The notes beneath the pieces are model-generated. The model saw nothing but the letters and a program-made list of their open reading frames with translations. It did not search any database and had not been told where the DNA came from. Made by a program: the position numbers and the translations under genes. Positions 34,300 through 55,300 of a stretch of DNA of 64,000 bases are shown here, piece after piece. The stretch comes from Cyanophora paradoxa CCMP329 (lineage: Eukaryota; Plantae; Glaucophyta): positions 248,001 to 312,000 of the forward strand of contig QPMI01000439.1 of NCBI GenBank assembly GCA_004431415.1, in the 5' to 3' direction. How positions within the stretch are numbered: position 1 is the stretch's first letter; each line of letters opens with the position of its first letter.

Positions 34300-37200
34300 A
34301 GTTTGCAGCTCGCCCCTTGCGTGCACGTGTGCTTGCAGACTTGCAATTGTGTACGTGTGGTGCAAGAACAAGTCCAAGCAGATAGCTGATCTGGCGTCCT
34401 TGCACAGTAAACCTCTGCTCTCGCCTTTCCAAGCGGCCGCGGGGCTTGTGGACCAGCTGCCGGCCGCGGCGTGCCGGGAAGAAGTACTCTTGCAGCGCAC
34501 GTGCACGTACACGTAGCGGCAATATTAATGCGGAAGGGACGATCGGGAGAGCAGATCTAGAGGCTTTACGCCATCGCCACCGCCCGAGAGCACTCAGAGG
34601 TGAGTGACTGCGAGCACTTCGAAGGCACTCAAGATCGGAAGTATGGAACTGTCGTTCGCCTCCGGATTGGTTTCGCCCTCAAGCCAGCCTGCCGAACGTC
34701 ACCGGCAACCGTATATAAGTGCGATGTAGCCATAGATCCGAATTCGAAACGGGGATGCATATGGCGGGGCCCCGGGGGCGGGCGCACGGTGGACGAGGCG
34801 GCGGGCGCGCTCGGGCCCCACCTCGCCAGGCAGCAGGCCCTGCCGATCCCGCGGGGCGTCCTGTCCTGCCGGAGCCCCCGCCGCCAGCAGAGCCCGCGCG
34901 ACCTCCACGCGCCCCAGCTGTCGGCCGGCCGCTCATCAAGCAGAGCATGAAAAGATTATTGTTGGATGAGCGCCGCGCGCGCACGCGGCAGGCGATGTGC
35001 AGAGGGGTCGACCCCGTGCGGTCCTGCTGCGCCAGAGCGGCGCACGCCTGCGGCGCTGCCAGCATCGCCGAAAGGAGCACGCTCACGTTGTCGAAGGCGG
35101 CAACCGCCACGTGAATCTGCGTGTCGTCGATGGTCACGAGCACGGAAACACAGTGGGCAGACTTAGAGCAGGGCCCCGCCGCGGGCAAAGCGGCGTGCCG
35201 GGTTGCGGCCCGACGCGTCAAGCACAGCCACATCCGATGCAGAGGTGAGCACATGGGCGGCCCTCTCGATTGCGCCCCTGCGGATGCGAGCGGGGGTTTC
35301 GGTTGCCAGAGCAGACCAAACAAGAGGGTTGCAGAGCGTACGTATACATATACTTTTTCCATCCTACAAAAGTATCGCTGTTCCCCGCTGGAGGACACGA
35401 TGTCGATGTGGAAAGCCACGGCTGTTGCTCTGCAAAACGGTGCAGGGGCGTCTCTCCTTCCAAATTTTGCATGCGCGCCAGCTTCGCGGCCACCGCGCCA
35501 TAAACGTGTCAAGGGCGAGGGAAACAAGTGTCTCGAGACGTATTGCACCTTGGGGCATCGGTGCAAAACCTTGATAACGAAGTCAGCGCCGCCGTCGGCT
35601 CCAAACCCTGTGAGGTGCAGGCAACAGTTTCCGTCGAAATCCTGCCGAGATATGGAGTGAGAGGATCTTCGAAGCGCTTGGCGGATTGCTTAAGATTAGA
35701 GGTGCGGGTTTCCGTGCCTGGGCCCTGGGGTCCGAGAGGGGCAGGAGGGCGGCTGCGGCCGCAAAGTTCCCCTTCCAGCACGCCAGCGCCAACGGGGTCC
35801 GTCCTGCGGGCTAGGCCTCAGATGCGGGCTTGCAATTGCAGATCGAAGGGTTCGAGGGCGAGGCTGAGCGGACCCAGCGGGTCCGTAACGGAGAGGGCGG
35901 CCCTAGGGTCCTTGCAAGCGCCAAGAATGTCTTCAATCGTCAGCGCGGCGTTCTGCACCGCAGCCTGCCGCAGGCGTATGTGTGCAGAAGCACAAGTAGA
36001 GATGAGAGAAAGCTGATCCAAAGGCGGCGCAGAAGCGGGCCAAGTCGCACGTAGTGGAAGACCGTGCACCCGTGCTCGTCCGGGGTTCCGTCCAGCTTCA
36101 CGCCTCGAGAGCGGAGGCCGTCTAGCGCCAGCCCCAACGATTTGGCGTACGTGCGCCAGTCGACGTTACGGGCGGAGCCGACCGGAGCTTCGAAAGCACC
36201 ATGGCCGATGTTAACGTTTCTGGAAGAGTCGAGATCCAGAGCAGAGCGTGCAGCGTCGGGAGTCGACGTCGCTGGCAGAGCCGTAGGTTCCGGGACAGTA
36301 GAAGTCCACTTCTTTTTGCCGCTGCTGACCATCCGGTAGTCGTCCCATCGGATCTCTTCGTTGGACTTACCCGCGTACTCGGGCATAGCAGTAATCGATT
36401 GGATTTGGGTGTCGATGTTCTCAACGTAGTCGGGTTGCCACGTCACACGGTACCTCGGGAAGCCCGTTCCAACAACGGCGTGATAGTCGAAGGGTGGCCT
36501 TGCAGGGACGAGCCCGAGGAGTTGGAAGATGGGCCGGGGGCCTTTGGAGGCCCAACGGGCCGGGTCCGCGCCATGCTGGAGCAGGAGCAAGACAATGTTG
36601 GGTGCGCCAGCCTCGCATGCCGCCAAAAGCGCCGTTCTGCGCAAATTTCGAGAGAGGTGCAGGATCAGGTTCGAATTCGGAAAGTCTAAGACACGATGAA
36701 TGGAATCTTCCACCCTCGGGCCGGGCCTCACCTTCCCTCCAAATCGGTGGCGTCGATGTCGATAGCACCGTCACGGTCTGCAGCATTAAGCAGATCCCGC
36801 ACGGCGGGCTCATCCGATTTCTCGGCAGCCAATATAAGGTGCCCCTTCAAGATTTGATCCGCCAGGACCGCGTCATCAGATCTCTCGCAAGCTGTAGCAG
36901 CCGCACCCGTCTCCGGATTGGTTTCTCCCTCCAGCCAGTCTGCAGAACGGTGACGTCGAGTCAACCGATAAGTGCGATAAGGCCATAGATCCGAATTCAA
37001 AAGGGGGGGGGCATATGGCGCGGCCCCCGCCGCGCGTGCGAACGCACGGTGGACGAGGCGGCGGGCGCGCTCGGGCCCCACCTCGCCAGGCAGCAGGCCC
37101 TGCCGATCCCGCGGGGCGTCCTGTCCTGCCGGAGCCCCCGCCGCCAGCAGAGCCCGCGCGACCTCCACGCGCCCCAGCTGCCGGCCGGTGTGAGCGCCCC

Positions 37201-40200
37201 CGCTCCTTAGCAGAACATGTCCAGAATGTTAATATTGTCGAGCGCCGCGCACGCGGCAGGCGATGTGCAGAGGGGTCGACCCCGTGCGGTCCTGCTGCGC
37301 CAGCGCGGCGCACGCCTGCGGCGCTGCCAGCATCGCCGAGAGGAGCACGCTCACATCGTCGAAGGCGGCAACCGCCACGTGAATCTGCGTGCCGTCGATG
37401 GTCATGAGCACGGAAATGCGGTGGGCAGATTTAGAGCAGGGCCCCGCCGCGGGCAAAGCGGCGTGCCGGGTTGCGGCCCGATGCGTCCAGCGCAGCCACA
37501 TCCGATGCAGAGGCGAGCACATGGGCGGCCCTCTTGATTGCACCCCTGCGGATGATGAAAAGGTGACTAGAACCCCTTCGGATCAAGGCTTCTGACTATC
37601 CCACGGATCTCTAGACGGGCAGTAGGGGGACTACGCACACGGACGGGCTCCGTGGTGGTCAGAGTAGCCTGGACCCCGTTGTAACCGGCCCCCTGCTGAA
37701 CAACAGCAGCGGCGCCCTCGGGCAGAACCGGCGTAGTATTATTACAACCGTGAGAGTCCGACATTGTGAGCCTAAAACGCGGGTTTTGATCAGCGGCCGG
37801 TTCACAAGAATCAGGGGAAAGCATGTCGTAGGAATCAGACTCAGAGCACCGTACGAAGGTGAAGAGAGTCAGGTGGGCGGGGCGTCGGCGCCTAGCTTGC
37901 TGCGATGCGGCAGCAACCAGGCGGGCTTCGCGGACTGCTCCTTTCTGCGAAATTACTGCGAGTTATCGAGTCGGCTTATAATAAGGGACGGGTACCACCG
38001 TCTTCCGTTTCGATCCCTCCCGAGAATCGCCCGATTTCCGGAAATTCCGGAAATCGGAGGATCCTCGTCCAATAGTCGCCAGTCCTTCGACGGCCGAGTA
38101 CTAGTGCCGACGGAAGCCGGCTCGCCAAGTTGGCTCGTAATGTTAATTGCCCCTAGCCGTCGTGAGCTAGTTAGATAAATAGTTATCCATATGGCTTTTC
38201 TTGCGTGCCCATGCCACGCCGTAGTTCGTGCACGTCCGTTGTTCGGAGCTTGCCAAGTTGCTCCTGGCCTGATCGGTCCGAGCCCCTTAGGCTGGTTCGA
38301 TTCGAGCCCTTAGGCTGGACTACCGTAGAGAATAGTAGTGCTGCAACGCCGGACCTTTCCGGGCTTCGAGCCTGGATTACTACGTATACTCGAGTGCGGC
38401 TAGTTAACTGAATATTATATTCGGTCGAAAAAGCAAACCGGGTACGGCCACACGGCCTTAACATGCCGGCCTCCACCAAGCGTCGACCTCGACGCTTTAA
38501 AAAGCAAACCGGGTACGCCTTACGGCAAAGACAAGAGGTTCTCGATCGGAAAGGGTCGCAACCGCGAGACATGGACCTCGATCAACTGACCAGGTCGATG
38601 AAAAATTCGGGGATCATCCGGTACCGACCGGATCTTTACCCGAGACCCGCTCACTGCCTCCTCGACAATATATGGTCCGGAATACCCAGAAGCGGCAGCC
38701 TGTCCAGGCTTTTTGGTTCTCTCCGGTGGCAGATATAAATCAACTGGATCGCCGACTTTGAAATTCCTTCGGCGCCCCTTGTCGATCCAACCGTGCTTAA
38801 TTCTCAAGCTCTGTTTGAACAGATTCAAAAAGGCCATCTGCCAATCAGCAATTTGCTGATTTTTGTGGATTTTTAACCAAGCCGTGAGTACTTCATTAGA
38901 AGCGGGTAACTGGACTATCGACCTGTACATTGCCGACGTTGGCAGATCACTGCCAGTCGACCGCGGTTCAATATTAATTTCCGGTCCGTGTGCAGCGCTA
39001 CTAGTAGTACCACTAGTAGTTGAAGAGCGCGCGGACACCGCACTGCGCATGCCATCCCCAGGGCCGCCAAGGCCAAGGCCAGCGTTGGTATCATTATTAG
39101 TGCCAGCTGCAGCCTCGGCTGCAGCTGTGGCATTGCCGCTCGAGCTGGTCGAGTCCGCTATATGCATATGCTGCTCAGCTAACAGTGCATGTCTATGCAT
39201 TTGGCGTGTATACGTATGCATATCGCCTTCGTTATCTGCGCCCATATCGACCTCAGCGTGTTCAACGCCGCCCGCTGCAGTCGCCTGCGCGCCTCGCAGC
39301 TTAGGGGGTCGACGTGTAGACGGTTTCAGAAGCGCGGGGCCAGGGCTCGTAAAAGTGAGCTGCTTAGATATACCAGCTATATATATCATAGCCGCCGCTG
39401 CTGCAGTTGCGTCGGAACGCCAGCGGCATCGCATATGTGTACGCATACGTCCCGCGCTGCTGTGCTTGTTGGCTACTAAGCGCCAGCCGTTCGTACAGGC
39501 GGAATCGCGGATCCAGACCGCATCTTCGTCCACTGCGTCGGCCGCCACCGTAGTCTTTGCGGGTCCAAACGCTGCTGTCTGCGCCTCGACTGCCGTGAGC
39601 CGCGGCGCGCCCTCTGCGAGCGTAGGCAGTGACGCGTAATGTAAATCGATCGGGAGATAAGGATCATATCCGCGCATGAGCCGGAACGGCGTGAATCCCG
39701 TAGCTTGAGAAACCGTCGTGCGCATAGCTAGCAGTGCCTCGCCGACCACACGTGTCCAGTGCGTCTTACGATCACTAGCTAAGCTACGGATTTTAGCTTC
39801 TAGCGTCTGATGACCGCGTTCCAGCACACCTTTCGCTTGCGGCGTATATGCTGGCATGATTACCAATTTAATCCCCATCGAGGTGAGAAACTCGCGCACT
39901 TCTTTCGACGTGAAAGCTGACCCTTGATCGCATTCAAGTTCGATCATTAAGCCGTGCTCGTAGATCACCGCCAGGATTGCTTGAATAATGGTCTGCGCAT
40001 TTACGCTTTCATGCGCCGACGCACACATCCATTTACTGAACGTGTCTTCGAAGGTGATCAACGCCTTTCCCCCCTTGCCAGCGAAATTGACTTCGTCCAT
40101 CTGCCATCGCTGCATAGGCCGAGACGAATATCGCGGCGTAGGCTCTTTGCTAGTCGGCCTATCGAATTTCTGGGTGCGGCAGTGCTCGCACAGAGATACA

Positions 40201-43200
40201 TATTTGCGAACCGAGTCCCGCATCCGGGGCCAATAAAAATTCCGCTGAAGTCGATTATTCGTCGCATGATAACCGCCGTGTCCCGATCCAAAGCCGCTAT
40301 GCGCTTCTTTAATAATTTCCTTTCGCAGGGAAACTGGGATCACGATGCGCTCACGTGTCTCTCCGTGAGGATACGATAGATGAAGCAGCAGACCGCCAGG
40401 ACCTAACTTATAATCCTGTGACTGTACAGCTAACGCCTCGCGTTCCTTGACTGTAAGCTTTTGTGCTGCTTCACCACCTTCCATAAAATCAATTAATGCC
40501 CGCCAGGTCGGATCGTCGCGCTGTGCGTCACGTACGCGAGGATCCGCTGTGGCCGACGACTGCTGGGTCGTCGCTACGGCAGGTAACTCCCCCCGCTGCT
40601 GCACTCGACGTTTGCGCTGGCGCCGACTCCTGCACAGCGGGCAGATATCGACTGCTGCGCGTACGATGCGAACCATCCAGCCCGGAATCGCTGCGCCTGC
40701 TATATTTGAGGCATCTTTCACTTTCTGCAGCGTTTTCCGGAATCCGAGGCAAGGTCCCTGCCGGCCTCGCCTGTCTTGCCCTGGCATAATATGCAGACTG
40801 AGCACTGCCGCCTGACTCAAAGGAAGTTTATCGATGTGCTGCTTCCAGCTGCGAGTACCCATGAGCTGCTCTGCTCTGGGGTTGTCTGCTGGTGCTAGTG
40901 TGAAATGCACAATTCGCGGCGGCTGCACCACTGGCTTGTTCTTAAGCCGGTGCGCTACCTCTCTTCTTTTTAGAAATTCCGTGATCGCCAATCGATCACC
41001 CTGACTAGCAAGTGTTGCCGTCAGGTTCAGCTTTGCTAGCTCGAATAGGGACGGGGGCCCGCTGCCCGCTTGAGCCGGTGCGAGCAGGTTCGTGAGCGAC
41101 GCGGCTAGTGTAGCCGGGCTCTCTGTGCCCACGTTATCCTCAAGCTCGTTTTCCTCATTTTTCGACGCAGAGACCGCATTCACGCCCAGGCTGGGGCTTG
41201 AGTCACTGTCCGTCTGCGTTGACACCTCCGAGGTAGTCACATCCCTCCGGGGTCTCACTTTACCATAATAGTCATATAAACGCGAGATCACGTCCGCATC
41301 ACCGTTGATTTTACCCTTCACGTGCTCGATCGTGAATGGCATAAATCTCTGCAATTTTACTGCCCATTTTGTCGCGCGATTTGCTGCCATCCCGCTTAAG
41401 GGATAATTTGGCTTGAAAATTGCCAGCAGCGCCTCATGGTCCGTACGCAGGGTGAAAGGTCCGAGTTCCAAGTACGGTCGGAACTGTTCCGTAATTGCCC
41501 AGACTGCTGCTGCACCCTCGAGGTCCGTCGGCCAGTAGTTGCGCTCCGAGTCAGTGGTCGTCCTGCTGGCACAACCCACAATATATTCACGACCTTGACC
41601 GTCTTTTTGTTTAAGAATTGCGCTGAAGCCGTCCACGCAAGCGTCAGTCTGTACAATGAAGGGTCGACCGAAGTCCGGATATTGCAGCACCGGTGCAGAT
41701 GTCAGTCTTTTCTTTAGCTTTTCGAAAGCTTCTTGCTGCGCCTCCTTCCACATCCACGGTATCCGTGCCCGTAATAAGGACGTGAGAGGGGCTGCTAGAA
41801 CAGAAAATCCTTCAATAAATTTCCTGTAATAAGACGCGAAACCCAGAAAACCTCGCAGCTGACGGACTGTCTTAGGCTGCGGCCAGTCATGAAGAATCTG
41901 GACTTTCTTGGGGTCCACACGTACCCCTGATGCATCGACCACATGGCCCAGTAGTTCGACTTCCGCCTTCGCGAACTTGCATTTTGTGGGTTTCAGACGT
42001 ACGTTCGCCTCATCCAGTCGAGATAACACCTTGTTCAGGTCTCTAGCGTGCGTTTCAATTGACCGGCTGTAAACCACCAGGTCATCGAGGTAACACAGCG
42101 CGTGCGTCCATGCCAAGCCGGAAAGGATAATATTCATGGCGTTTTGAAAGCTCCGCGGCGCTCCCGAGAGACCAAACGGTAGTTGCGTGAATTCAAACTG
42201 TCCTTCACTCGTCCTGAAGGCAGTTTTCTCTTTGCTTTCCTCAGATAAGGGCAGCTGCCAATACCCTGAGACCATATCGAGCGTGGAGAATATTACTGCG
42301 CCTTGCAGATTATTGAATATATCGTCGATGCGAGGAAGCGGGTAAGCATCCTGTTTTGTGATTGTATTCAACTGACGGTAATCTACGCAGAACCGCCAAG
42401 TACCATCCTTCTTTTTCGCCAATACTACTGGAAATGCCCACGGCGATTTTGAAGGTACGATCACTCCAGCGTCTAACTGTTCCTGAATGATTTTTCGAAT
42501 TTCGGCCCTTCGAATAGGGTCCATTTGACGCAGGGGGACACGAATTGGCCTGTGATCACCGGTGTCGATTACATGCGCAAATTCTGCAGGCATCGTTTTG
42601 CCTGGCTCTACCTTATAGCTTAAGGTAAACATATGTCGTTTTGCATAAAGCACATCATACACCGAGTCGCGTAAGCAGCGGGGTAGCTCGTCGAAGCCGA
42701 CGTCTAGTCTGGTTTTTAGCTCTTGCCAATCTTTGTCAGCTGCTTTAGCCTGACACTCTTTGCAATGTGCTTGCCCACACCAACAGGTGGTTGGCTCAAG
42801 CTGGCCGCGTGCTGCCTCAGCTACTGCTGCGACTGCGGCGCGCATCGCTGGTTCCTTACTGTTCACTGCGCCGTTTTCAAATATGGTGCTTATATTTAAT
42901 TGTGATGCCTCTGTCCAGTAGCCGACCGCCGTGCCTTTGCGCAGGACGACGCCCTTGACGCTGGGGTTCAGCACTCGCACTGTACATGTGCCGCCGTCCC
43001 ACTTGGTCACGGTGTCTGCAGGCATGAGGTCGTGCTGCACTGCAAATGCTCCGGACCGTTCCATCAAACCACAGGTCCCGTCCTTCGGCTGAGTGAGGGC
43101 GTCTCGCAGCACCAGCTGAATATTTTTCTCAGATGCCGGAGGGATGCGCACGTCCTCGGGCAGCGTCATCGCTGGTGCCTTCTCGTCATTCATCATTTTT

Positions 43201-46200
43201 ACTTGTTCGTCCATTTTATCTTTATGGATCAGCAGTCCGTCCGCTAGGTCTATTAACCAGCGATTTGCTTTGACGAAGTCTGCGCCTAGAATGACGTTCG
43301 TTGGCAACCGCTTCCACACGAAGAAAGGCTGCCGAGCATGTACCATGCTCCCTAGGGTGATGTCAAGATAGATCAGCCCTACGCACTTAACCGGAGAGCC
43401 GTCCGCTGTTGCAAACGAGCATGTGAACGAGCGGTCGATATGCTTCTCCAAGCCAAAGTGTTTAATCACCGCCTCTGCAACGATTGAATAAGCTGCACCG
43501 CTATCTATTAATGCATCGATAGCGCTGTTGCTATTGACCTTGATTTTTACATAGGCGTGGACGCCTCTCCGTCGCGTCGAGGTGGGTGCTAGCACCTCGG
43601 CCTCCGTTAATAATTCCGCAACTAGTGCGTCTACCTCATTCTGATCTGTGGGGATTGTATACAGATCTGCAAAATTGATGCTCATCTCCGCCGTGTTTGC
43701 TGCGGGCGCTGGAGATGAGGTTTCCTTTACACACAGCCGCTTGCCGGCGCGCTGTAAGTCTCGCTCAACCAACTTGCGATTAGTTGGGATAAAGAGCTTT
43801 CTTTCGACTCGTTTAGGTGCGACCGGACTAAGTCCGCCTTCGCTTGCGGCCTTTTGTTGGTCCGCTCCACGAGGGGTTGGCTCACCATGATCAGGTACCG
43901 TCGCCGAGTCAGGAGACTGTGCAGCGCCGAGGCTGCTCGTCCCCTCTTTCATCCCCATATCAGAAGTACGTCCAGACCGCACGGCTAACTCAATACTCCC
44001 CACCTGAGCGTCCCCAGGCGAGGCGAGCCGAGCATGTGACGATCCAGCCATCCTCTCTTGAGAGCTTTGCCCCTGGGCGCCCTTCGAGCGATGCTCTTTG
44101 AGGTACGCCGCCTTGGCCTTTGACCTTGCTGGTCTGGGCCGGGGTCGAGCTCCCGCATCCTGCACTGGCGCTGAGCCGGGGCCAGTCTTGCGCAGGGCAT
44201 AGGTGCCTTCGGTCACGCCGACGCTGTCCTGGGGCCCCAGGATGCCTTCGGTCATGCCGACGCTGCCTGCATCTTCCAAGTCGAGCGCGTGTTCTTCAGC
44301 TTGCAACGGGTATTCATCGTCCGTTTCGTATTTACGTTTATTTTGCTGCTCCGTTTCACACTTGGAAGGCGTCGAGCTCACGTCCTCGACTGTGAGCACT
44401 GCATACGGGTTCCTGTCCGCGAAATCACGCGTATTTACAGGTGACTGTACAACCGAGCGACTCGGCTGAGCTCGCTCGCGACTGACTTTATTTGCAGTTT
44501 TACGCTGAGGGCCTCCCGCCCTGGCTACGAAAGTTCAACTCTTGCAGCTGCTGCTGGAGAGCCGCGATCGCTGCGGTCTGCCTCTCCTTCTGCTGCTCTT
44601 CGTCCTGCTTCTTCTTAAAGAAGCACTTGTCCGCAGTGTGATTGAACCGGCCACAGAAGTCACACTGGACGTTCGAGGCTGCGCCTTGCGACTGGAAGGG
44701 GCGGCCCTGATAGCCTCCCTTTCCCTTGAAAGGTTTCTTACCCCCGCCTTGCGAGAAATTCTCGTCCTGGCGCTGACGCTTGAACCCAGAGCCGAAGCTC
44801 TGCTGCTGCTGGGGCGGCTGCTGGCGCATCCCACGAGCGGCTGCAGTTCCCTCTTCCATCTTGCGGGTGCGGCATTCAGCTATAATGTGCCCGCTCTTCC
44901 CACAGTAATTGCAGATGATCCGGCCGTCAGCATCAAAGCCGGCGTTCGGAGGGCGTTTGCGCTCCGGCCTCTGCTGCCGCTGATCGGACCGCGGGCGTTG
45001 ATACCCCTGGCCCTGCTGCGGGTACCCCTGCTGCTGCCGCTGGTATCCCTGCGGCGCGGGCTCACTGTACCCTCCCGCAGTTTCAGGGCGCTGGCCAACG
45101 TGATCGCGGACTTCCACGATGTTGGCTCGCAGCGTCGCCAGCTCGCGAGTGAGTCCCACGTCGCGCTCGCGCAAGGCCTCGCTGATCACCTCTTTGAGGG
45201 CGGCGGGCGTCGCGGCTGGAGGTGGTGGCGGAGCCAGACCCATGGGCTCCTGGACTGCGGCCACTTTTGCCGCCGCGGCCTGGATAGCGTAGGCGGCGTC
45301 GTCGGTGACGTACTCGACGAATAGCTTTTCCCAGGTAGCCACGTTGCTATTTGCCGCCGTGAGCTTCCTGTAGGCTTTGTGCGCCAGCTTATGCAGTCGC
45401 TTATTTTCGCTCAAGGCCATTGCCATCGCGTTTATTAATGTCGAATCGGTCCAGACGTTTTCCATATTCAGTAGGCGTCGATAGGAAATGCAGTCCTTCA
45501 CGTACATGCCGGCCTCCAGTGAGCCTGGCCGATCGATCTCACAGAGAGACGAGGCGGCCTCTTGTATGTGCTGCCTTAGTACAGCCTCCGGGTTCTGAGC
45601 CTCCGTGTACTTGTTTATAATATATGTGCGCAAAGCCTCGTAGTCATTTCGATCGAGTGCGGCCTCCCGCTCAATGCAGCGCACTAGACTCGTGGCCGTG
45701 AGCTGATTCGACCGCCGAAGGCACTTCATAAGTGCGTTCGCGCGCGCCTTCGAAACCTCCGCGGGCGTGTCGCCCTCGATACTAGCGCTAAAGAGATCAT
45801 ACTCTTCAAGGAAGCGAAGTATCTTATTGCCTCGCAGTTCAGGCAGTGGAAGATCCTTTCTATCCGAGTCCACCTTAAACTGCTTGATAGCCTTAGCTAC
45901 GGCTTCCGTCGCCGCTACTGCTGCGTTGGCAGCCTGCACAGCCATTGCTCCTGTTTGATTGAAATAGGATATGCTACCGAGCAGGGCGGGTTGGAAGGGA
46001 GGGAAAAGAAACTTTGATGTCACTGCGCTCGTTCCAAAAAGGAACGTATAAGGAACCGGTCACAGAGATCGATATACAAAGTACGGGCGCACTGCCTCCG
46101 GGGCCGTAAACGACGATCCGAAGCACTGAGAACCGATGCCCAAAAGTTGACCGTCAGCGGATGTACAGTCTACAAGCGGCAAGACGTATACGTACTTTTG

Positions 46201-49200
46201 AATTCGCAGTTGACGCCCGTTTACCCACGCTTGACGCCGGAGGCCGAGCCGGACGGCGAGGACGGTGAGTAGCCGCCGTCTATAATCCAGTGACCGTCGG
46301 CACAGCGCACGAGAAAACCGTTATCGGGGTGCGGGGTGCACGTGCCGGTCGAATTCTTCTCGCTGGGCGTGTCGGGGAAGAGCGTACGCTCGAGATCCTC
46401 GGGCTCGGCCTTGCGGTTGCGCGGCACCAGCGTCTTGCCGGCGCCCACCTTGACAGGCGTACGCGCGGTCCCGGCGCCGACTCCGGCCGGGGGCGCGACG
46501 TAGACCGGCGGCTGCTGAACGGGGGCCGCGTAGTTGACGGAGGCGCCGGTGTTGGCTCCGAAGAAGTACGACTGACCGACGTCCGGGAACTGATCAAAGA
46601 TCTGTTCGCGAAGAAAAAACGTCGGTTGCGGCCACTTGACTGGCTCTTAGCCGATGACGGCCTAGTCGCGCACGATCTGTTTTAACGTCGGCGGCGAGCT
46701 CACCTTGCCCGCGAAGGTCGGGGCCAGTGGCACAGTCACCGGAACCGGACCGACAGCCGGGGTCGGATCGACAGGCGCGGCGCTAGTAACCGGGTAGGAC
46801 TCCGTGACCCGCTTGGTCTCCCGATCGAGCTCCTCGGTTTGCGGACGGAGCTTGTTCGACTCCGGGGAATGGACGTACTTGACCGAGGTCCGGCGCTCCT
46901 TCACCGTCTCCTCGGTGCGAGTACCGAGTCCAGCCGCAGTCGCGCCGACCGGAAGTGCCTATCCAATGGGAATAGTTCAGAGACAAGCCTTGATAAAATT
47001 ACGAATCCGTTAATTTGGCTGGTGTCGTAGGGGCGTGGGTTCGACGGCCGTTAACGCAGCCGTTCGAGCAGGCCCCGTGAAAAGGTGACTAGAACCCCTT
47101 CGGATCAAGGCTTCTGACTATCCCACGGATCTCTAGACGGGCAGTAGGGGGACTACGCACACGGACGGGCTCCGTGGTGGTCAGAGTAGCCTGGACCCCG
47201 TTGTAACCGGCCCCCTGCTGAACAACAGCAGCGGCGCCCTCGGGCAGAACCGGCGTAGTATTATTACAACCGTGAGAGTCCGACATTGTGAGCCTAAAAC
47301 GCGGGTTTTGATCAGCGGCCGGTTCACAAGAATCAGGGGAAAGCATGTCGTAGGAATCAGACTCAGAGCACCGTACGAAGGTGAAGAGAGTCAGGTGGGC
47401 GGGGCGTCGGCGCCTAGCTTGCTGCGATGCGGCAGCAACCAGGCGGGCTTCGCGGACTGCTCCTTTCTGCGAAATTACTGCGAGTTATCGAGTCGGCTTA
47501 TAATAAGGGACGGGTACCACCGTCTTCCGTTTCGATCCCTCCCGAGAATCGCCCGATTTCCGGAAATTCCGGAAATCGGAGGATCCTCGTCCAATAGTCG
47601 CCAGTCCTTCGACGGCCGAGTACTAGTGCCGACGGAAGCCGGCTCGCCAAGTTGGCTCGTAATGTTAATTGCCCCTAGCCGTCGTGAGCTAGTTAGATAA
47701 ATAGTTATCCATATGGCTTTTCTTGCGTGCCCATGCCACGCCGTAGTTCGTGCACGTCCGTTGTTCGGAGCTTGCCAAGTTGCTCCTGGCCTGATCGGTC
47801 CGAGCCCCTTAGGCTGGTTCGATTCGAGCCCTTAGGCTGGACTACCGTAGAGAATAGTAGTGCTGCAACGCCGGACCTTTCCGGGCTTCGAGCCTGGATT
47901 ACTACGTATACTCGAGTGCGGCTAGTTAACTGAATATTATATTCGGTCGAAAAAGCAAACCGGGTACGGCCACACGGCCTTAACAATGAGAGCGGGGGTT
48001 TCGGTTGCCAGAGTTGAGCGAACGAGCGGGTTGCAGTGCGCACCCTACAGAAGTATCGCTATTCCCCGCTGGAGGACACGATGTCGACGTGGAAAGCCAC
48101 GACTGTCGCTTTGCGAAACGGTGCAGGGGCGTCTCTCCGTCCACATTTTGCATCTGCGCCAGCTTTGCGGGTTCCGTGTCAAGCAAAGGGCCCCGGAAGC
48201 AAGCGCCTTGAGACGCATCGCACCTCGGGGCATCGGTGCAGAACTTTGAGAACAAAGGCAGCGCCGCCGTCGGTTCCAAATCCTGTGAGGTGCAGGCAAC
48301 AGTTTCCATTGAAGTCCTGCCGAGATATGGATCCGGAGTGAGTGTGAGAAGAATCTCGAAGCGGCTTATGATTAGAGGCGCAGGCTCCCGATCCGTGCCT
48401 GGGCCCTGGGGTCGGAGAAGGGCAGGAGGGCGGCTGCAGCCGCAAAGTTCCCCTTCCAGCACGCCAGCGCCAACGGCGTCCGTCCTGCGGGTTGGGCCTC
48501 AGATGCAGGTTTGTGAACGCAGACCGAAGAGTTCGAGAGCAAGAATGAGCAGACCCAAGGGGTCCGTAACGGAGAGTGCGAATTTGATGCTCTGCACAGC
48601 AGCCTGTGGCAGATGCATGTTCATGTGAGAGCCCAGCAAAGGTGGGGTGCGGGCAAGGTTCGGCGCACATCATGATCACTGTCGCTGTCCGCCGGCAACA
48701 GCGCATCTGGCGCTGCACTGACAGCCTCAAACAACTCATCCGGCCACATCGCATCCTGCGCTGCAGCGTGGACCATCTTGTAGCTCTCCCAGCGGAGTTC
48801 CTCGAAGGACTTGGCGGCATATTCTGGCATCAGTGTGATAGCCGTGTACTGCAGAAGCGCAGTCTTTTCTCCAGGTATACGTATAATTTGATCGCCGTCG
48901 ACGTACTGGAAGATCACCTCTTCTGCCTTAGTAACCTCGTAGTCCGGGAGGCCTTGAAGCTCGCCGGAAGGGCGCAAGTTCGCCCCAGGGTCTGGAGTGA
49001 TCGAAAATGGATGAGAAGGGTCCTGCATGCTGGCGGCAATGGTCGTAGGGTCCAAGCAGATGTGAAGTATGTCTCTTATCGAAACTGCCGCAACCAATGC
49101 CGCAGCCTGTGGAAGGCACCAGTGAGGTCGTGCACGAAACTTGGCGAGCCGCGCAGCAATGAGTGTGACGGCAAGCCGAGCGGCACGCACGTAGTGGAAG

Positions 49201-52200
49201 AGTGTGTACCCGTGCTCGTCTGTGGTGCCGTCCACCTTTGCGCCCCGAGCGCAGAGACCGGCCATCACCGCCATCACCTCATTCTTGCCTACTGTTCTCA
49301 GCGCGATGTCGACGCCGCGGCCCGCCATGAAGTTCGGGTGGGGAGGATTGAGACCGAGGAGGTCCACGAAAGGCCGGGGGCTCCGGATCGTGGGTGCCCA
49401 GCGGGCCGGGTCGGCGCCGCGCTCGAGGAGAAGCTTGGCGATCTGGAGAAAGCCAGTTTCGCACGCCACCAGCAGCGCAGTCCTGCGGTGGATATTATTG
49501 CTTAGCAGTGAATGTACATGAGTGCCGCAGTGCCATCAGATCTAGAACAGATCTGAAGCACACGGAACGGATCTTTCGGTTGTGATTGTGTCACAGTGGG
49601 TCTTTTAATTATAATGTCCTCCGTCCCCGTGGCCAGGGAAAGCCACCAATACTCCACGTATAATAATAATTTCTACATATCTTTTAATTCTATAATAAAT
49701 TCTACATAAATGCCTGCTCACCTTCCTTTCGTGTCGGCTGTATCGTAATCAAAGTCCGCATCCTCAGCATTCAGCAGAAGCAGAGCCGCCTGCTCATCAC
49801 CGCGCGCGATGGCCGCGAGGAGCGGGGTCTGCCCCTCCGCGTCCTGAGCGGCAAGGACCGCAGACTGAGAGTTCGCCTGCGCATGTTCTGCGGTGCCACA
49901 TGCATATGTGCAGTGCTGTCAGTGTTGGCCACGCGTGCGGGAGCAGTGCAAGTGCTCTGGGCGTGGAGTCGACGCACCCAAGAGCTCGCGAAGGACATCG
50001 CACCCCTTGTCCCAGTCGCTGTGAACGAGGTGGAAGGCGGTGCGGCCGTCTCGGTCCGCCGCAAGCAGGTCGATCGGTCTTGTAGAGCTCGACGCCTCCA
50101 GCAGTGCTCGAATCGCCGAACCCGCCTTGTGGCTTGCAGCCCGCACCAGTGGAGTCCGCCCCTCGGCATCTGCGGGCCCGCTACCTAAGCCTGGAAGCAG
50201 AGGGCTATCTTATGCTTAGTTCAGAGAACGCACCCTTGGCGCTGGCGGCATCGGGCCGGGCTGCAAAAAGAGTCCGCAGGGCGAACGAACTGTTGTTTTG
50301 GGCGAAGGTGTATGCGAGCGTGTCCCCCGCCTCGTTCTGCCGGCAGATTAATATTCAAGAACGGCTCATTAAAAGCATGGCAGCCGCCGCAGAGACGCAC
50401 GACAGCAGTGCAAGCGGGATCGCGATCGCATCCGAGCGCCAGGAGCAGCCGGAAGGCCAGCACAATTCCCCGGCTGGGCTGTTCGCGGTCGCCCATCCGC
50501 GTTAAAATACCCTGTACGTAGTAGAGGAGGATCCGGTTGACATATAAATTTGGAGGGGAGGCTATATATATCAAAGACAGCAGGAAATGTGTGCCTGAAG
50601 CGGGGTCCGGCCCGTGTCGTATGAACGAGCCTCGACCAGGCTAGACAGGCCCCAGCGCCGCATTACCGAAGCCCATTTCTCCACGAACGATGCGCAGTCC
50701 TCTTCTTCGAGAGTCTTGTAGCCGTCGAGTTGCATCGCAGCCTCCACACTGGATTTTAAAATGAAGTGCAGCGCCGTTCTTCCCGCTAAAAGGATGGACC
50801 TGGAGCCAGCATGCGTGACACGCATTGGGTGCGGCGCATCCCACGGCCGCGGCAGGCGTCGCCACGGGCCGGGGAGCACGCGGCACAGGGGTGACGCCCC
50901 GCGCTCGACGAGCTTCGAGGCCACATCCAGCCGGCCAGCCTTGATCGCTTCTGCGTATATATGTGCACGGCCGGTTCAATATATTAACCAGCCGCGAACA
51001 GCTCACGCAGAAACAAGTGTGCGGACTTAGGAAGAAGGTCAAGCCGTCCTCGTCGGAGCCGTCAAGCCCCGCACAAGAAACCTTTGAAATTCCGTCCGCC
51101 TTATGCAGAGCATCCTTCACGAGAGGAGTTAACGTTGAACAGCATGAGCAGCATTGACTTATATATCAATAACAGGTACTCGTGGCGTACAATGACCTCT
51201 CCGAGAATAACCATCTGTCGCTCCCGCGGAGTCTGCGGATCTAGGACTCCAGCGAACTGCGATTGCAACGGCGTTCAAAGCTGCAACTGCAAGCAAACGC
51301 ACAGCCAATAATTTATAAAGTTAATCTTGTCATGATCATGCTAACCTTCTGGTAGACGTCTTGGACGTGGACGTCGAGCCCGGGGCACCGGAGGCGCGAG
51401 AGGATTTCCAGGGCCCGGGAGGAGTGGGAGGCGTCGCGGCGCAGGCCTTTGATGCGGACTTCGACCTGCGCATGCGCCAGTCTCACGCGCGCGCTGCAGG
51501 TGCAGGCCTCTGGGCCAGCCGGGGTGCGAACGGCGGACCAGAAAGAGGTGCTGCAGGCTTGGAGCGCAGCTGACGAGGAGGTCTTTCAGAGCCGCCTCCG
51601 ACACGCGGGCGTCCGCCAGGTCCAGCGAACGAAGCTTCGGCAGCCTGGCGCTTGTCATCAGAGATGTGCGGAGCAGCAGATCTAGAGCAGCACAATATTT
51701 AATGCGGGCTCTCATGCATATGATCACCTGTGTTTGACGAGGATATCGATTGCGGAAGCAGGCCTGGGAATCGTTGTCGAGCTGCGCCGCGGCGCCACGC
51801 ACGGGGCCAACAAGTCAGGTCAGGATAAGCAAGAGGCACTAGTACTTGGCTAACGGGAGATAGAGAGTTTGAAGTGTGCCAGAGCTGGACGCGAGCAGCG
51901 AGTCGAGTGCGTGGGCGCTCAGGCCGACGCCGGCCGCGTTGAAGTGTTCGAGCTGCGGAAGCGCCGGCAGCGATTTGAAGGCGTAGCGGGAGCCATTCTC
52001 GCGGCAGAGGAAAGCGAGAGAGAGGTGCGTCAGGTTGGGCCCAGCCGCCGCGATACACTGCGCCGGCTCGGATCAGGGCACGTGTACGCAGACCAGCGGC
52101 GACCTGGCAACCGCGGCCGGCCGCGGACCACTAGTAGATAGGGGGGGGAAGTGACATTATTCTGACAGTACTCTGACATTATTTATAATGTCAGACCCGA

Positions 52201-55200
52201 TATTATTCTGACATTATTTTTGTCCGACTTGATATTATTCTGACATTATCCCAAAATGTCAGAATACTGTCAGAGTGATATCAGATATAATGTCATGTTG
52301 ATGTCACAATAACATCAATCTAACAACATACTACTGTCTAAATAGTACTGCGCCCGCCGCCCGCGCCCGCGCCCGTCGTCCGCCCGCGCCTCTCTTCCGA
52401 TCCACCTCCTGCAAAAGAGGAGAACATCAGCCAGCCAGCCAGCCAGCCAGGCGTTAAGGCCAGAGCGGAGAGGGGGCGCTAAGGTCGGGGCGGGGAGGGG
52501 GACGCTAAGGCTGGAGCGCCGGGGCTGGGGCGGGGCGGGGGACGCTAAGGCTGGAGCGCCGGAATTCTAAGGCTGGGGCAGGGCGTACCTTCATCGAGCA
52601 TCACGCCTTCCGGCAGGCAATCTGGGGCCGCGAATCAGCAAGGGCGAGCCGGCCTCGGCGGGGATCGGGCGGCGGCGAGCGTCCGGCCGGGAGCAGCGCG
52701 TACCTTCATCGAGGATCGCGCGGCGAAGTCGCGCGGGGCTGCACGCCCCGAGGCAGGCAAAGATCTGGGGCCGCGAGTCAGCAAGGGCGAGCGGGCCTCG
52801 GCGGGGATCGGGCGGCGGCGAGCGTCCGGCCGGGAGGAGCACGTACCTTCATCGAGGATCGAGGGGAGCGGCCGCGCCGTGCTGCAGCCTGCAGCTGCAG
52901 GAAGCGAGAAGCGCGGGTCGTGCAGTCGCGGCCGCGGGTCACCACGGAAGCGAGAGCGCAGGCCGGTCAAGCACTCCTGCGTGAGAAGATTAGCAAGAAT
53001 AGCCCACAGAGCGACCGCAGCGCGTCCGAGAGCACGAGTTCGCGGATCGGACCTGGCGGGCTGCGGACAATGCCGTTCGGGGCTCCGGGCGGAAGCTGCC
53101 CGCTTCCTAGAGCTTCCTGATCAGCAACGAGTGTGCCAAGAGGCCGGCAGCTCGCGGGAGACGGGCCGCGGACCTGATTCGACGAAGTCCGCCCGCGGCC
53201 CGCTCGCGCTGCCGACCTGCACGCGTACGAGGTGCACGCAACGCTAGAGAGGCCGTTGCTGCACGCTCCGCTCGCCTGCAACCGCCGCAAGGCGCAGGAG
53301 TAGGCAGCGAGGGCTCCGATATTTGCGGCTTGTGTACCCCAGTCAAAACCGGTACCCAAGCTCGAAGACCTCGCTCTTAGCTGGAGGCATGCAAGACAAG
53401 CGGCGAGCGCAGATATGCGCTGGAGACACTAGCTATGAAGAGTGGAGAGCGCCGCGGTCAGGAGAGACACTAGCTATGACGTCGCCCAGATTTGTGCGGC
53501 ATCACAGCAGACCGTTCGCGCTTAGCAGCGCACGGAGAGCCACATGAGATGCTTGGTGCGCTGGATCGGTCCCCGCGAGCTCCCGTTGCCGCTCTCCGCT
53601 TCCCGCGTTCGGGAGAAGTCGCTAACCCTGCCAAGTTGAAGCGCAGCTCCCCGCTCTACATCACACGAGTCTTGCGCCGATGTAAGAATGCCATTCGCAT
53701 GCTTTCAGCCCGACCCGACGCGATTCCGTGCAGGCCTGCCGGCGTCGTGCGGATTCCTTGCAGCTTCGAGAGCGGCTGGAGGCAGCGCGCAGTCAGAACG
53801 CTTTACAACCGCTTTCCGATCGATCTCGTTGCAGGCGAGCCGCGGCCGCGGCCGCGCCGCGCCCGAGCGCCGAACCCCGCCGCAGTTTCATGACCGCGCG
53901 GCCGCACCCGTGCGCCCCCGCCCCAATCGCTGCGCCTTGCAGTGATCCTCGCCTCAGATGCTCGCGAAACAGCCGTGTGGGAGCGGCTCCTCCGCCGCTC
54001 CTTCCCGTCTTCTTACGCGATCTCCACCGCGCCCTGGCCCACTGCCGAGGTAGCCGACTTAGCTCGCCGAGGTAGCCGACTTTCGGCCCACTCTCTTTCC
54101 CTCACACTAGTCTGTATCTAACCTCAAGTTCTGCGTGTCCAGATTTCGGAGGCGATCTGTCCAAGCGAAACTGCAGCGAAGCTCCGCGCTTTTCTGGTGC
54201 GCGCTCGCCAGCCCACGGCGCCGCTCTCAACCTTTATACATGATATTAAATGTCTCTTTAATGCGCGCTGCAACGTACCTCGGATCGCCCCCATCCGAAC
54301 ACCCCTCACCTGCTCTTAATCTGAAATTATTCTGACATTATCTCCTAGGGCGGCCACCGGAGGCGCACCGGGCCGCTTCCTGTGCGCGGCTTCCCGTGCG
54401 CGCCCTGACACGGCCCATCCATACGGCGGGCGCGGCGGCCGGCGTCCGGGGAGCGCCGGCCCGAAATCTCCTTGCGGGGCCGCCTGGGCGGCCGCGCGCG
54501 TATAGTACGGATGTTTAGTATGAAGAGGCTATATATTGTCAAAGTAAAGTCAAGATAATATCGGGCATGTTGACATTATTCTGACATTAAACCGGCGCAA
54601 GCGGACACTCATCATCGAAAGAGCACCGCCCAACGCTAAATGTTGGGCCGGGGACGCCCGCCGGCCCAGTTGCCGAGCTGATTCTAGCATTTGGAGTTCA
54701 AGTCTCGCGCTGTCTAGTAATGTCAGAATGATGTCAGAATAATGTCATTCATTCTGACATTTTAAATAATGTCAGAGTAATGTCAGAATAATGTCACTTC
54801 CCCCCCCTATCTACTAGTGGACCCGAGAGATATCGGACTGGGCGAGTTGGTGCAGGCCGCTGAAGCAGAGCCGCCGGATGTGCACGCCCATCCTCTCGCA
54901 AGCCGCCACGATAAACCGCGCGCTGTCCCCGCGCTGGTACGGTGCGGAGCATGCGCATGTCACAGTGAGCGCATGCATATGTGGTGAGTACGTTTATACG
55001 TACTATTCGCAAGCGCTCAGCGGCTGCTCCGCATCACGATCGGGCGCTAGCGCGAGCGGCGCCGCGGCGCACCGAGAAAGCGGGCTCCTCATAGAGCAAT
55101 CTGTCCCAGCAGGCCGCCCGGAAGAAGCGGGACGAGTGCCCTAAGCCCAGCGCCAGCGCCTGATGCCCGACAGAGCTTGCCACGCAACGAAGGATCTTCA

Positions 55201-55300
55201 CGAGTACGTTGTCTGGCAAGGAGAATCATCGGAGATCTAGATGCATATGCATATGGACGCGTACGACATCGGCGATCAGCGCCAGCGCTGTGCTCCGTCT
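34300..55300 (-). CDS. large multi-exon F-box/LRR/ankyrin-repeat protein with two GLEBS-like motifs, paralogue of 746-3948; interrupted by two intronic transposons
   Basis: F-box-like LPDNVLVKILRCVA (~55180-55220). LRR segments GPNLTHLSLAF (shares PNLTHLSLA with the first gene) and LPKLRSLDLAD. Ankyrin motifs GRTALHFIL, GRTAFHLV, LLVACETGFLQIAKLLLERGADP, GETPLHRF, GSTPLHIAC, EVARALLAAGA. Both ends are approximate. Confidence 0.6.
34650..36640 (-). repeat. internal tandem duplication of an ankyrin module (copy B); copy A = 36900-37555 + 47990-49490
   Basis: 34790-35290 is nearly identical to 37045-37551; 35290-35890 is similar to 47990-48575; the peptides GADPARWA and DEHGxTxFHY occur in both copies. 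Confidence 0.85.
37556..38463 (-). repeat. 3' LTR
   Basis: Direct repeat of 47078-47985 (offset 9522); no differences noticed by eye, and the ORF-track translations are identical. Confidence 0.96.
38520..44534 (-). CDS. pol: Pol polyprotein (aspartic protease, reverse transcriptase, RNase H, integrase), in the +1 frame relative to gag
   Basis: ALIDSGA (protease); WRFCVDYR, LPFGL, CYLDD (RT); FIVQTDAC (RNase H); H..GHGG..CEHC, WQMD, ECDQGSAF, GVLERGH (integrase); GPY C-terminal motif. The frame is open from 44534, with no ATG near its start. Confidence 0.95.
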   Translation of the reverse strand, partial: TFVARAGGPQRKTANKVSRERAQPSRSVVQSPVNTRDFADRNPYAVLTVEDVSSTPSKCETEQQNKRKYETDDEYPLQAEEHALDLEDAGSVGMTEGILGPQDSVGVTEGTYALRKTGPGSAPVQDAGARPRPRPARSKAKAAYLKEHRSKGAQGQSSQERMAGSSHARLASPGDAQVGSIELAVRSGRTSDMGMKEGTSSLGAAQSPDSATVPDHGEPTPRGADQQKAASEGGLSPVAPKRVERKLFIPTNRKLVERDLQRAGKRLCVKETSSPAPAANTAEMSINFADLYTIPTDQNEVDALVAELLTEAEVLAPTSTRRRGVHAYVKIKVNSNSAIDALIDSGAAYSIVAEAVIKHFGLEKHIDRSFTCSFATADGSPVKCVGLIYLDITLGSMVHARQPFFVWKRLPTNVILGADFVKANRWLIDLADGLLIHKDKMDEQVKMMNDEKAPAMTLPEDVRIPPASEKNIQLVLRDALTQPKDGTCGLMERSGAFAVQHDLMPADTVTKWDGGTCTVRVLNPSVKGVVLRKGTAVGYWTEASQLNISTIFENGAVNSKEPAMRAAVAAVAEAARGQLEPTTCWCGQAHCKECQAKAADKDWQELKTRLDVGFDELPRCLRDSVYDVLYAKRHMFTLSYKVEPGKTMPAEFAHVIDTGDHRPIRVPLRQMDPIRRAEIRKIIQEQLDAGVIVPSKSPWAFPVVLAKKKDGTWRFCVDYRQLNTITKQDAYPLPRIDDIFNNLQGAVIFSTLDMVSGYWQLPLSEESKEKTAFRTSEGQFEFTQLPFGLSGAPRSFQNAMNIILSGLAWTHALCYLDDLVVYSRSIETHARDLNKVLSRLDEANVRLKPTKCKFAKAEVELLGHVVDASGVRVDPKKVQILHDWPQPKTVRQLRGFLGFASYYRKFIEGFSVLAAPLTSLLRARIPWMWKEAQQEAFEKLKKRLTSAPVLQYPDFGRPFIVQTDACVDGFSAILKQKDGQGREYIVGCASRTTTDSERNYWPTDLEGAAAVWAITEQFRPYLELGPFTLRTDHEALLAIFKPNYPLSGMAANRATKWAVKLQRFMPFTIEHVKGKINGDADVISRLYDYYGKVRPRRDVTTSEVSTQTDSDSSPSLGVNAVSASKNEENELEDNVGTESPATLAASLTNLLAPAQAGSGPPSLFELAKLNLTATLASQGDRLAITEFLKRREVAHRLKNKPVVQPPRIVHFTLAPADNPRAEQLMGTRSWKQHIDKLPLSQAAVLSLHIMPGQDRRGRQGPCLGFRKTLQKVKDASNIAGAAIPGWMVRIVRAAVDICPLCRSRRQRKRRVQQRGELPAVATTQQSSATADPRVRDAQRDDPTWRALIDFMEGGEAAQKLTVKEREALAVQSQDYKLGPGGLLLHLSYPHGETRERIVIPVSLRKEIIKEAHSGFGSGHGGYHATNNRLQRNFYWPRMRDSVRKYVSLCEHCRTQKFDRPTSKEPTPRYSSRPMQRWQMDEVNFAGKGGKALITFEDTFSKWMCASAHESVNAQTIIQAILAVIYEHGLMIELECDQGSAFTSKEVREFLTSMGIKLVIMPAYTPQAKGVLERGHQTLEAKIRSLASDRKTHWTRVVGEALLAMRTTVSQATGFTPFRLMRGYDPYLPIDLHYASLPTLAEGAPRLTAVEAQTAAFGPAKTTVAADAVDEDAVWIRDSACTNGWRLVANKHSSAGRMRTHMRCRWRSDATAAAAAMIYIAGISKQLTFTSPGPALLKPSTRRPPKLRGAQATAAGGVEHAEVDMGADNEGDMHTYTRQMHRHALLAEQHMHIADSTSSSGNATAAAEAAAGTNNDTNAGLGLGGPGDGMRSAVSARSSTTSGTTSSAAHGPEINIEPRSTGSDLPTSAMYRSIVQLPASNEVLTAWLKIHKNQQIADWQMAFLNLFKQSLRIKHGWIDKGRRRNFKVGDPVDLYLPPERTKKPGQAAASGYSGPYIVEEAVSGSRVKIRSVPDDPRIFHRPGQLIEVHVSRLRPFPIENLLSLP
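44500..45945 (-). CDS. gag: Gag with two CCHC zinc knuckles
   Basis: First ATG at 45945 (MAVQAA); knuckles CNYCGKSGHIIAEC and CDFCGRFNHTADKC; TAA at 44500-44502. Confidence 0.92.
   Translation of the reverse strand: MAVQAANAAVAATEAVAKAIKQFKVDSDRKDLPLPELRGNKILRFLEEYDLFSASIEGDTPAEVSKARANALMKCLRRSNQLTATSLVRCIEREAALDRNDYEALRTYIINKYTEAQNPEAVLRQHIQEAASSLCEIDRPGSLEAGMYVKDCISYRRLLNMENVWTDSTLINAMAMALSENKRLHKLAHKAYRKLTAANSNVATWEKLFVEYVTDDAAYAIQAAAAKVAAVQEPMGLAPPPPPAATPAALKEVISEALRERDVGLTRELATLRANIVEVRDHVGQRPETAGGYSEPAPQGYQRQQQGYPQQGQGYQRPRSDQRQQRPERKRPPNAGFDADGRIICNYCGKSGHIIAECRTRKMEEGTAAARGMRQQPPQQQQSFGSGFKRQRQDENFSQGGGKKPFKGKGGYQGRPFQSQGAASNVQCDFCGRFNHTADKCFFKKKQDEEQQKERQTAAIAALQQQLQELNFRSQGGRPSA
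47078..47985 (-). repeat. 5' LTR
   Basis: Direct repeat of 37556-38463, upstream of gag on the - strand; TATA-like TTATTATAA near 47498-47506. Confidence 0.96.
52129..54819. mobile_element. non-autonomous CACTA (En/Spm) DNA transposon, 2691 bp
   Basis: Ends CACTAGTAG...CTACTAGTG. ~67-bp TIRs (52129-52195 / 54753-54819) with ~2 mismatches. 3-bp TSD GAC (52126-52128, 54820-54822). Many subterminal TGACATTATTCTGACA-type motifs in both orientations. No transposase recognised. Confidence 0.93.
52583..52860. repeat. imperfect tandem repeat (~115-143 bp units) inside the CACTA element
   Basis: Three starts gtaccttcatcgag, and two copies of tcagcaagggcgagc.ggcctcggcggggatcgggcggcggcgagcgtccggccgggag. 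Confidence 0.8.

Follow-up and report, generated by a model that had tools for sequence, protein, structure and literature searches.

The minus strand of the window (the whole 64,000-nucleotide stretch of Cyanophora paradoxa CCMP329 DNA that was analysed) carries a locus that can be modelled by hand as 34 exons and 33 introns, yielding one open frame of 1656 aa without stops. From its N-terminus, the model encodes an F-box-like segment, leucine-rich repeats (LRR), an ankyrin array, a Nup98-type Gle2/Rae1-binding sequence (GLEBS-2, core at residue 837), further ankyrin repeats, a second such sequence (GLEBS-1, residue 1273) and a last set of ankyrin repeats. Exons 1-3 (54823..55470) include the start codon (55470 or 55449), the putatively degenerate F-box-like segment (exons 1-2) and the start of the LRR, which continue through exons 4-8 (51197..52057). 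The first ankyrin array and the 5' part of a duplicated ankyrin module (module A) occupy exons 9-21 (48044..51114), as delimited by Pfam Ank matches, a local profile and an RNA contig. The 3' part of module A is found at 36732..37545 and is 95% identical to 34657-35277 within the sister module B, which comprises exons 26-34 (34594..36636), carries GLEBS-1 and runs to the stop codon, as defined by sequence comparison and RNA joints. Two transposons are lodged in introns of the model. The initial annotation, made from the letters alone, had recognised GLEBS-1 and missed GLEBS-2 as well as the Gypsy and CACTA insertions.

Gene model and annotation

The modelled introns comprise 28 GT-AG and 5 GC-AG introns, the latter at 50512-50594, 48317-48398, 37385-37466, 35642-35717 and 35117-35198, one of them with a compatible RNA joint. 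At two junctions without RNA joints, four splice combinations keep the frame open, and the model represents one of these. Its GC3 is 0.72. A local profile detects nine ankyrin repeats at E<0.01 in the 1656-aa model, and the tandem repeats score above cut-off. Only two FG dipeptides occur in the 1656 residues, in agreement with the earlier remark that FG repeats are missing from the neighbourhood, and the autoprotease domain PF04096 is absent by Pfam from 78 minus-strand ORFs of the locus (of 117) and from the annotated protein of the locus. This protein, P0003 (EukProt Cyanophora paradoxa tig00020675_g12647.t1), has 640 aa, matches the GLEBS-1 exon at 100% and contains two Pfam families, ankyrin (Ank_2, 112 bits) and GLEBS, without an F-box. 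Its annotation begins after the Gypsy element, within the 3' part of module A, and its start codon lies at a place that corresponds to an intron in the sister module. In the ESM Atlas, residues 160-360 of P0003 match ankyrin clusters only; a single-sequence AlphaFold model of the protein was discarded owing to a mean pLDDT of 36.7. Outside the locus, a Pfam scan of 93 ORFs chosen from the window gave only retrotransposon matches and a weak TPR match (17567-18295, minus strand; E 1.4e-4, below cut-off).

A Nup98-type GLEBS within an ankyrin exon

The initial annotation placed a Nup98-type GLEBS at positions 36336-36470, whose minus-strand translation is identical to the 45 residues quoted there. 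Including its hairpin half and core, the motif extends over 36315..36473 (minus strand), as supported by Pfam, PDB and an independent profile. On the Pfam family PF21240 (Nup98_GLEBS) it scores 40.9 bits (E 2.2e-10; cut-off 27), so that the profile search suggested at the time returns a match above threshold, and each of the seven PDB sequences recovered at E<=10 is a Nup98 chain (3mmy_B ranks first, E 0.00026). When 70 GLEBS segments from other proteins were made into a profile, the exon scored 54.2 bits on it; after residue shuffling, 967 of 2000 shuffles gave any score and the highest was 5.4. The match covers positions 7-61 of the 64 in this profile, from which we conclude that the N-terminal hairpin half is present. 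A degenerate DNA pattern of the GLEBS core finds two sites in the window and none in 100 shuffles. Sixteen of 21 residues are identical to the Nup98 GLEBS of the green alga Micractinium, and the Glu-Glu pair is located at 36354-36359. Based on alignment with 3mmy_B and on the GLEBS alignment, the counterparts of human E201/E202 are kept in both GLEBS-1 and GLEBS-2; according to the available text of one study, this pair makes salt bridges to Rae1 (PMC3783196). At the level of sequence, the presence of a genuine Nup98-type GLEBS at 36336-36470 is confirmed.

The motif had also been described as lying inside an ankyrin array, and this is borne out by a single 586-nt exon (36051..36636, minus strand) that contains an ankyrin repeat, a linker, GLEBS-1, a second linker and the start of the next ankyrin repeat. 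Since GLEBS-1 and an ankyrin repeat share one exon, their fusion cannot have been created by the gene model. Positions 35767-36905 are covered by a DNA contig of run X3 that agrees with the window throughout, and an RNA contig of run X1 extends over 36389-36623, likewise without differences, and connects the ankyrin repeat with the first half of GLEBS-1. The RNA contig ends before the Glu-Glu pair; the RNA runs gave no cover over the Glu-Glu core, which counts neither way. Separately, short partial matches of RNA and DNA contigs at 36048-36080 and 34874-34907 point to a related ankyrin gene family elsewhere in the genome, some members of which are more highly expressed.

Two further explanations bear on the motif itself, namely that it binds Bub3 rather than Rae1, or that the locus is part of Nup98 put in the wrong place by the assembly. 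Bub3 is a relative of Rae1, and Bub1 and BubR1 contain GLEBS motifs, as far as described in the available text of PMC4695854 (related literature, available in part: bioRxiv 10.1101/2021.10.26.465790). Against binding to Bub3, the matches of GLEBS-1 are confined to the Nup98-type profile and to Nup98 chains, and no Bub1/Mad3 family is matched by it in Pfam at E<=1. Against mis-assembly, the FG repeats and the autoprotease domain of Nup98 are missing from the model and the 78 locus ORFs, respectively, and the ankyrin-GLEBS junction is spanned by both the DNA and the RNA contig. Both explanations are considered very improbable.

A second GLEBS and the duplicated ankyrin module

The core of GLEBS-2 is located at 48765..48854 (minus strand) and scores close to the Pfam cut-off of 27, with 28.0 bits on its exon and 26.7 bits on the longer ORF. 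It matches the independent GLEBS profile at positions 30-59 only, and its spacer is longer. The cores of GLEBS-1 and GLEBS-2 share 16 of 26 residues, and the values of pS (0.85) and pN (0.25) indicate saturated synonymous sites.

The ankyrin region that surrounds both motifs is a tandem duplication, in which 35284-36129 resembles 47986-49269 (80-88%) and 34657-35277 resembles 36908-37545 (88-96%). The latter pair has a dS of 0.06, and the preceding module parts have dS values of 0.19 and 0.94; this uneven divergence along the sequence suggests stepwise duplication or gene conversion. Comparison with the sister module defines the exon of GLEBS-2 (48669..49106, minus strand): a single 91-nt exon of the other module (35874-35964) corresponds to its first ~62 nt joined with the closing part of the exon that follows. 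The sister of the GLEBS-1 exon (49191-49482), in turn, has only 292 nt and no GLEBS. As the GLEBS-2 block splits the sister of a different exon, the one after the GLEBS-1 exon, the two GLEBS occupy non-equivalent sites of the module, which would imply two placement events. Both are found ~30 residues past the end of an ankyrin-like repeat. A two-sequence DNA alignment misplaces the 5' half of the GLEBS-1 exon, and the protein alignment was relied on instead.

For three module pairs, dN/dS amounts to 0.33, 0.26 and 0.36; values near 0.3 are only moderate, and the conservation of the GLEBS motifs could have been inherited from donor genes. One candidate donor comes into view at 48771-48812, where loose ends of contigs in runs X1, X2 and X9 reveal a more abundant GLEBS transcript of the same alga. 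It agrees with the GLEBS-2 core at 90% or above and has GLEBS-like flanks beyond it; a short extension after the core is common to this transcript and both GLEBS of the window. It may correspond to the alga's Nup98 or a paralogue.

The F-box and LRR end

The N-terminal end of the model is located 15-19 kb upstream of GLEBS-1, beyond both transposons. A Pfam F-box match reaches 18.0 bits (cut-off 24.3), and the first residues of the matching ORF are intron according to RNA. Exon 2 alone gave no F-box match in Pfam, PDB or the Atlas. The spliced segment does not contain the usual Leu-Pro; compared by eye with the consensus, the segment encoded by exons 1-2 presumably has its hydrophobic residues spaced as in an F-box. 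We regard a degenerate F-box as the somewhat more probable identity of this N-terminus. The LRR of exons 4-8 match the F-box-associated Pfam family LRR_At5g56370 at 24.8 bits (E 2e-5; cut-off 27), and individual exons taken alone reach 18.1 and 13.6 bits. Of the F-box/LRR/ankyrin protein proposed in the initial annotation, the one open 1656-aa frame stands, and a single gene with this reading frame is plausible as modelled; the F-box remains below its cut-off, and no RNA joint across the transposons is listed.

Recent transposon insertions and the transcribed segments

The Gypsy-type LTR retrotransposon (37556..47985, minus strand) encodes gag (44500-46059) and pol (38520-44534) with reverse transcriptase, RNase H and integrase. 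The 10.4 kb element is bounded by LTRs of 908 bp that are identical to each other and by a 4-bp target duplication, runs in the same orientation as the gene and is contained in intron 21, with 6 nt between duplication and acceptor. Without it, intron 21 would have 64 nt, the same length as the sister intron. With an open gag and a pol frame of 2004 residues, the element is apparently intact and very young; a long low-complexity stretch follows the integrase. Its LTR sequence also occurs in RNA contigs, about 50 letters of which are unplaced. The second element, 2.7 kb in length (52129..54819), has 71-nt terminal inverted repeats and a 3-bp target duplication and is one that we take to belong to the CACTA superfamily, given its terminal motif and this duplication. 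The duplicated letters are the first three of intron 3, and a transcript in which the element is left unspliced meets a stop two codons past the intron 3 donor. The CACTA element is without a recognised transposase, carries a plus-strand spliced RNA at ~53360-54350 and shows high RNA depth, which stems from other copies. Both insertions are recent and intronic, with clean target duplications, and they probably now lower the amount of full-length mRNA in the sequenced strain or cut it.

Runs X1, X2, X7 and X9 are identified as RNA because their contigs show spliced joints. Such joints are available for 6 of the 33 modelled introns: introns 1 and 2 (55213-55322 and 54934-55072) in all four runs, three introns of module B (35642-35717, 35482-35548 and 35278-35341) and, past the Gypsy element, a single module A intron (37178-37252), which was assigned by four of four variant letters. 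Exact-match RNA contigs were obtained from all three segments, that is, before the CACTA element, between the elements and after the Gypsy element. In the middle segment, a contig of run X7 corresponds exactly to 49190-49376, where it ends at the modelled donor and continues with 67 further letters; all four runs are without cover at 49709-51514, which counts neither way. RNA depth on the exons 3' of the elements is 2-4. Contigs of the F-box exons are, in all four runs, unspliced past the intron 3 donor and extend 28-260 nt into the CACTA element. Among the RNA joints listed, none crosses either transposon, in contigs that drop rare forms. All three gene segments are thus transcribed at low depth, with no joint between them among those listed.

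This pattern bears on the question of whether the protein acts as a ligase adaptor at all. The ankyrin-GLEBS part could work on its own, for example as the 640-aa protein, with its start past the 3' LTR or its expression driven from it, or the F-box could be defunct; in either case the product would tether Rae1 without a ligase, keeping it from the pore or linking it to ankyrin-bound partners and thereby damping mRNA export. Such a possible, if rather doubtful, arrangement agrees with the start of the P0003 annotation past the Gypsy element, with spliced RNA from the exons downstream of it, with its orientation along the gene, and with a weak F-box whose transcripts end in the CACTA element; moreover, the available text of PMC2133102 describes how a free GLEBS draws RAE1 away from the pore. 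However, the start codon of P0003 is intronic in the sister module, the middle segment is covered by RNA as well, and the frame is intact over exons 1-34. Together with the identical LTRs, this intact frame implies that the split is very recent and that both GLEBS took shape while the long gene was still whole.

A more neutral explanation holds that fragments of GLEBS genes were captured in tolerant loops of a redundant ankyrin paralogue, with idle motifs in a decaying locus. The two recent insertions, the RNA depth of 2-4, the moderate dN/dS and the absence of an orthologue among the matches listed are in line with it. By contrast, 34 exons are free of stops and frameshifts, and two separate in-frame insertions keep the full invariant set even though synonymous sites are saturated and the flanks have diverged. 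Idle capture is considered improbable.

GLEBS motifs outside Nup98

Homologue searches were conducted with several queries. The GLEBS-1 exon retrieved only itself and one ankyrin protein; with both motifs, the search returned the query itself, one Nup98 and one weak match, and no protein with GLEBS-2. A phmmer search with the ankyrin and GLEBS stretch was run against 1.84 billion representatives, and the best 150 of 1012 matches were used. Among 265 proteins gathered, 132 score for GLEBS (a number that includes the window's own peptide and P0003) and 132 for ankyrin, and both are present only in P0003. Eighteen matches contain multiple GLEBS, including four with a RING domain above cut-off (one of them also with Deltex), one with a weak RING and one with a weak AAA match. 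In a GLEBS profile search, the 120 of 1370 matches listed include nine RING proteins (four of which were in the query), one TRAF and one PARP/CAP-Gly protein; 108 of these rows are new and contribute five further RING proteins, one TRAF and one PARP. The same 120 of 1370 matches contain no F-box, and ankyrin in P0003 only. Hence, neither another protein with ankyrin and GLEBS nor one with F-box and GLEBS is found among the matches listed, and the co-occurrence of F-box, ankyrin and GLEBS elsewhere, for which a proteome search had been proposed, did not materialise among them. As no relatives of the same build were found, the gene may be young and strain-restricted.

The non-Nup98 GLEBS proteins (P0066, P0120, P0185, P0213, P0216, P0220, P0224, P0238, P0015, P0087 and P0057) carry RING, Deltex, TRAF, PARP, kinase, CAP-Gly or AAA domains and originate from plants, a tunicate, a green alga and other eukaryotes. 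Named hosts of ligase-linked GLEBS are Macleaya, Castilleja, Styela, Parnassius and Myrmecia; the Parnassius protein is probably a chimeric gene model. The share of RING among GLEBS proteins is a raw count without a background control, and some of these proteins may likewise be chimeric models. A tree computed over 66 columns from 50 GLEBS rows (48 of 130 GLEBS proteins, plus both motifs of the window) leaves most branches unresolved, so that no donor can be named; in it, the two window motifs pair at 93/74, a node that is not starred. Ligase-linked motifs are scattered in this weak tree among plant-type, animal-type and other rows, a placement that fits repeated recruitment without proving it.

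A literature search at the level of titles and abstracts, covering few subscription papers and no supplements, revealed no account of a GLEBS in an ankyrin, F-box, RING, PARP or Deltex protein and nothing on this gene family in Cyanophora. The earlier statement that the architecture is not among described proteins therefore holds for this search and for the database matches listed. The motif itself is known, and the pairing of ankyrin and GLEBS is already an automatic Pfam call on P0003.

A putative Rae1 tether and its possible role

The product of the locus is likely a Rae1 tether. In the available text of PMC2133102, the isolated Nup98 GLEBS is described as both necessary and sufficient for RAE1 binding, and the free GLEBS as titrating RAE1 off the pore. 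Each GLEBS would loop out between ankyrin repeats and bind the top of the Rae1 propeller via its Glu-Glu pair, as in Nup98; for GLEBS-1, it is highly probable that the motif loops from the ankyrin stack and clamps one Rae1. We tentatively favour, at a little short of an even chance, a product that clamps Rae1/Gle2 to a predicted F-box/LRR/ankyrin SCF adaptor, encoded by a gene with two Nup98-type GLEBS. For this, one 1656-aa gene would have existed before the two recent intron insertions, the degenerate N-terminal F-box would bind Skp1, and the bound Rae1, or an occupant of its RNA groove such as an mRNP or a viral antagonist, would become a target for ubiquitination.

The initial annotation had also raised the idea of an integrated decoy for viral effectors. 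In structures of ORF6-Rae1-Nup98, as presented in the available text of PMC9376891, ORF6 touches the RNA groove of Rae1 and not the GLEBS. Since the contact is made with Rae1, the motif could at most present Rae1 as bait, and a role as decoy would be indirect. More broadly, GLEBS might be a mobile bait that is repeatedly grafted onto ligases and defence-type proteins, with the glaucophyte gene as an SCF version that arose by two uptakes and ubiquitinates Rae1-docked viral proteins, although we consider this wider proposal unlikely.

In the literature that was available in part, the role described for the Nup98-type GLEBS is to anchor Rae1 at the pore. A protein that has two GLEBS without being a nucleoporin would compete for Rae1 or redirect it, and with an F-box, mRNA export or Rae1-bound viral proteins would come under SCF control. 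That GLEBS occurs beside RING, Deltex, TRAF and PARP in eukaryotes of separate lineages suggests that the design is a general one, apparently not described so far. Taken alone, the locus is of lesser value, being one algal gene that is possibly being broken by transposons.

Comparison with known systems

The GLEBS of Nup98, Nup116 and Nup145N (PF21240; 3MMY chain B) has the same core and Glu-Glu pair as the Cyanophora motifs, and GLEBS-1 shares with it an N-terminal half of hairpin length. In contrast to these nucleoporins, the Cyanophora gene has two GLEBS among ankyrin repeats and is devoid of FG repeats, the autoprotease and the Nup96 part, and its protein is therefore not a nucleoporin. 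The GLEBS of Bub1 and BubR1 is likewise a short acidic motif for a Rae1-related WD40 propeller, whereas the Cyanophora sequence is of the Nup98 type.

In viral ANKR/F-box proteins, the F-box is C-terminal. The Cyanophora model differs from the poxviral proteins in its order of F-box, LRR and ANK, its N-terminal degenerate F-box and its GLEBS inserts. An F-box combined with repeat domains is a feature that it would share with F-box/LRR proteins and poxviral ANKR/F-box proteins (for the latter, PMC4353913 and PMC9414399), which act as substrate adaptors of SCF. The GLEBS proteins with RING, Deltex, TRAF or PARP domains (those listed above except P0057) resemble the Cyanophora model in that they have at least two GLEBS, here alongside domains of ubiquitination or ADP-ribosylation, and several are nearly FG-free; in contrast, they are single-chain RING types without ankyrin or F-box, and they do not group with the window motifs in the weak tree.

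That a ligase can have Rae1 as a partner is shown by the PHR ligases (RPM-1, Highwire, Phr1/MYCBP2), in which, according to the available text of PMC4806438, a RING ligase binds RAE-1 by a short motif and acts with an F-box partner. As portrayed there, these are giant RING-H2 proteins of animals only, with a RAE-1 binding domain of their own rather than a Nup98 GLEBS. In Cyanophora, by comparison, it is the F-box adaptor that would carry the Rae1-binding motif.
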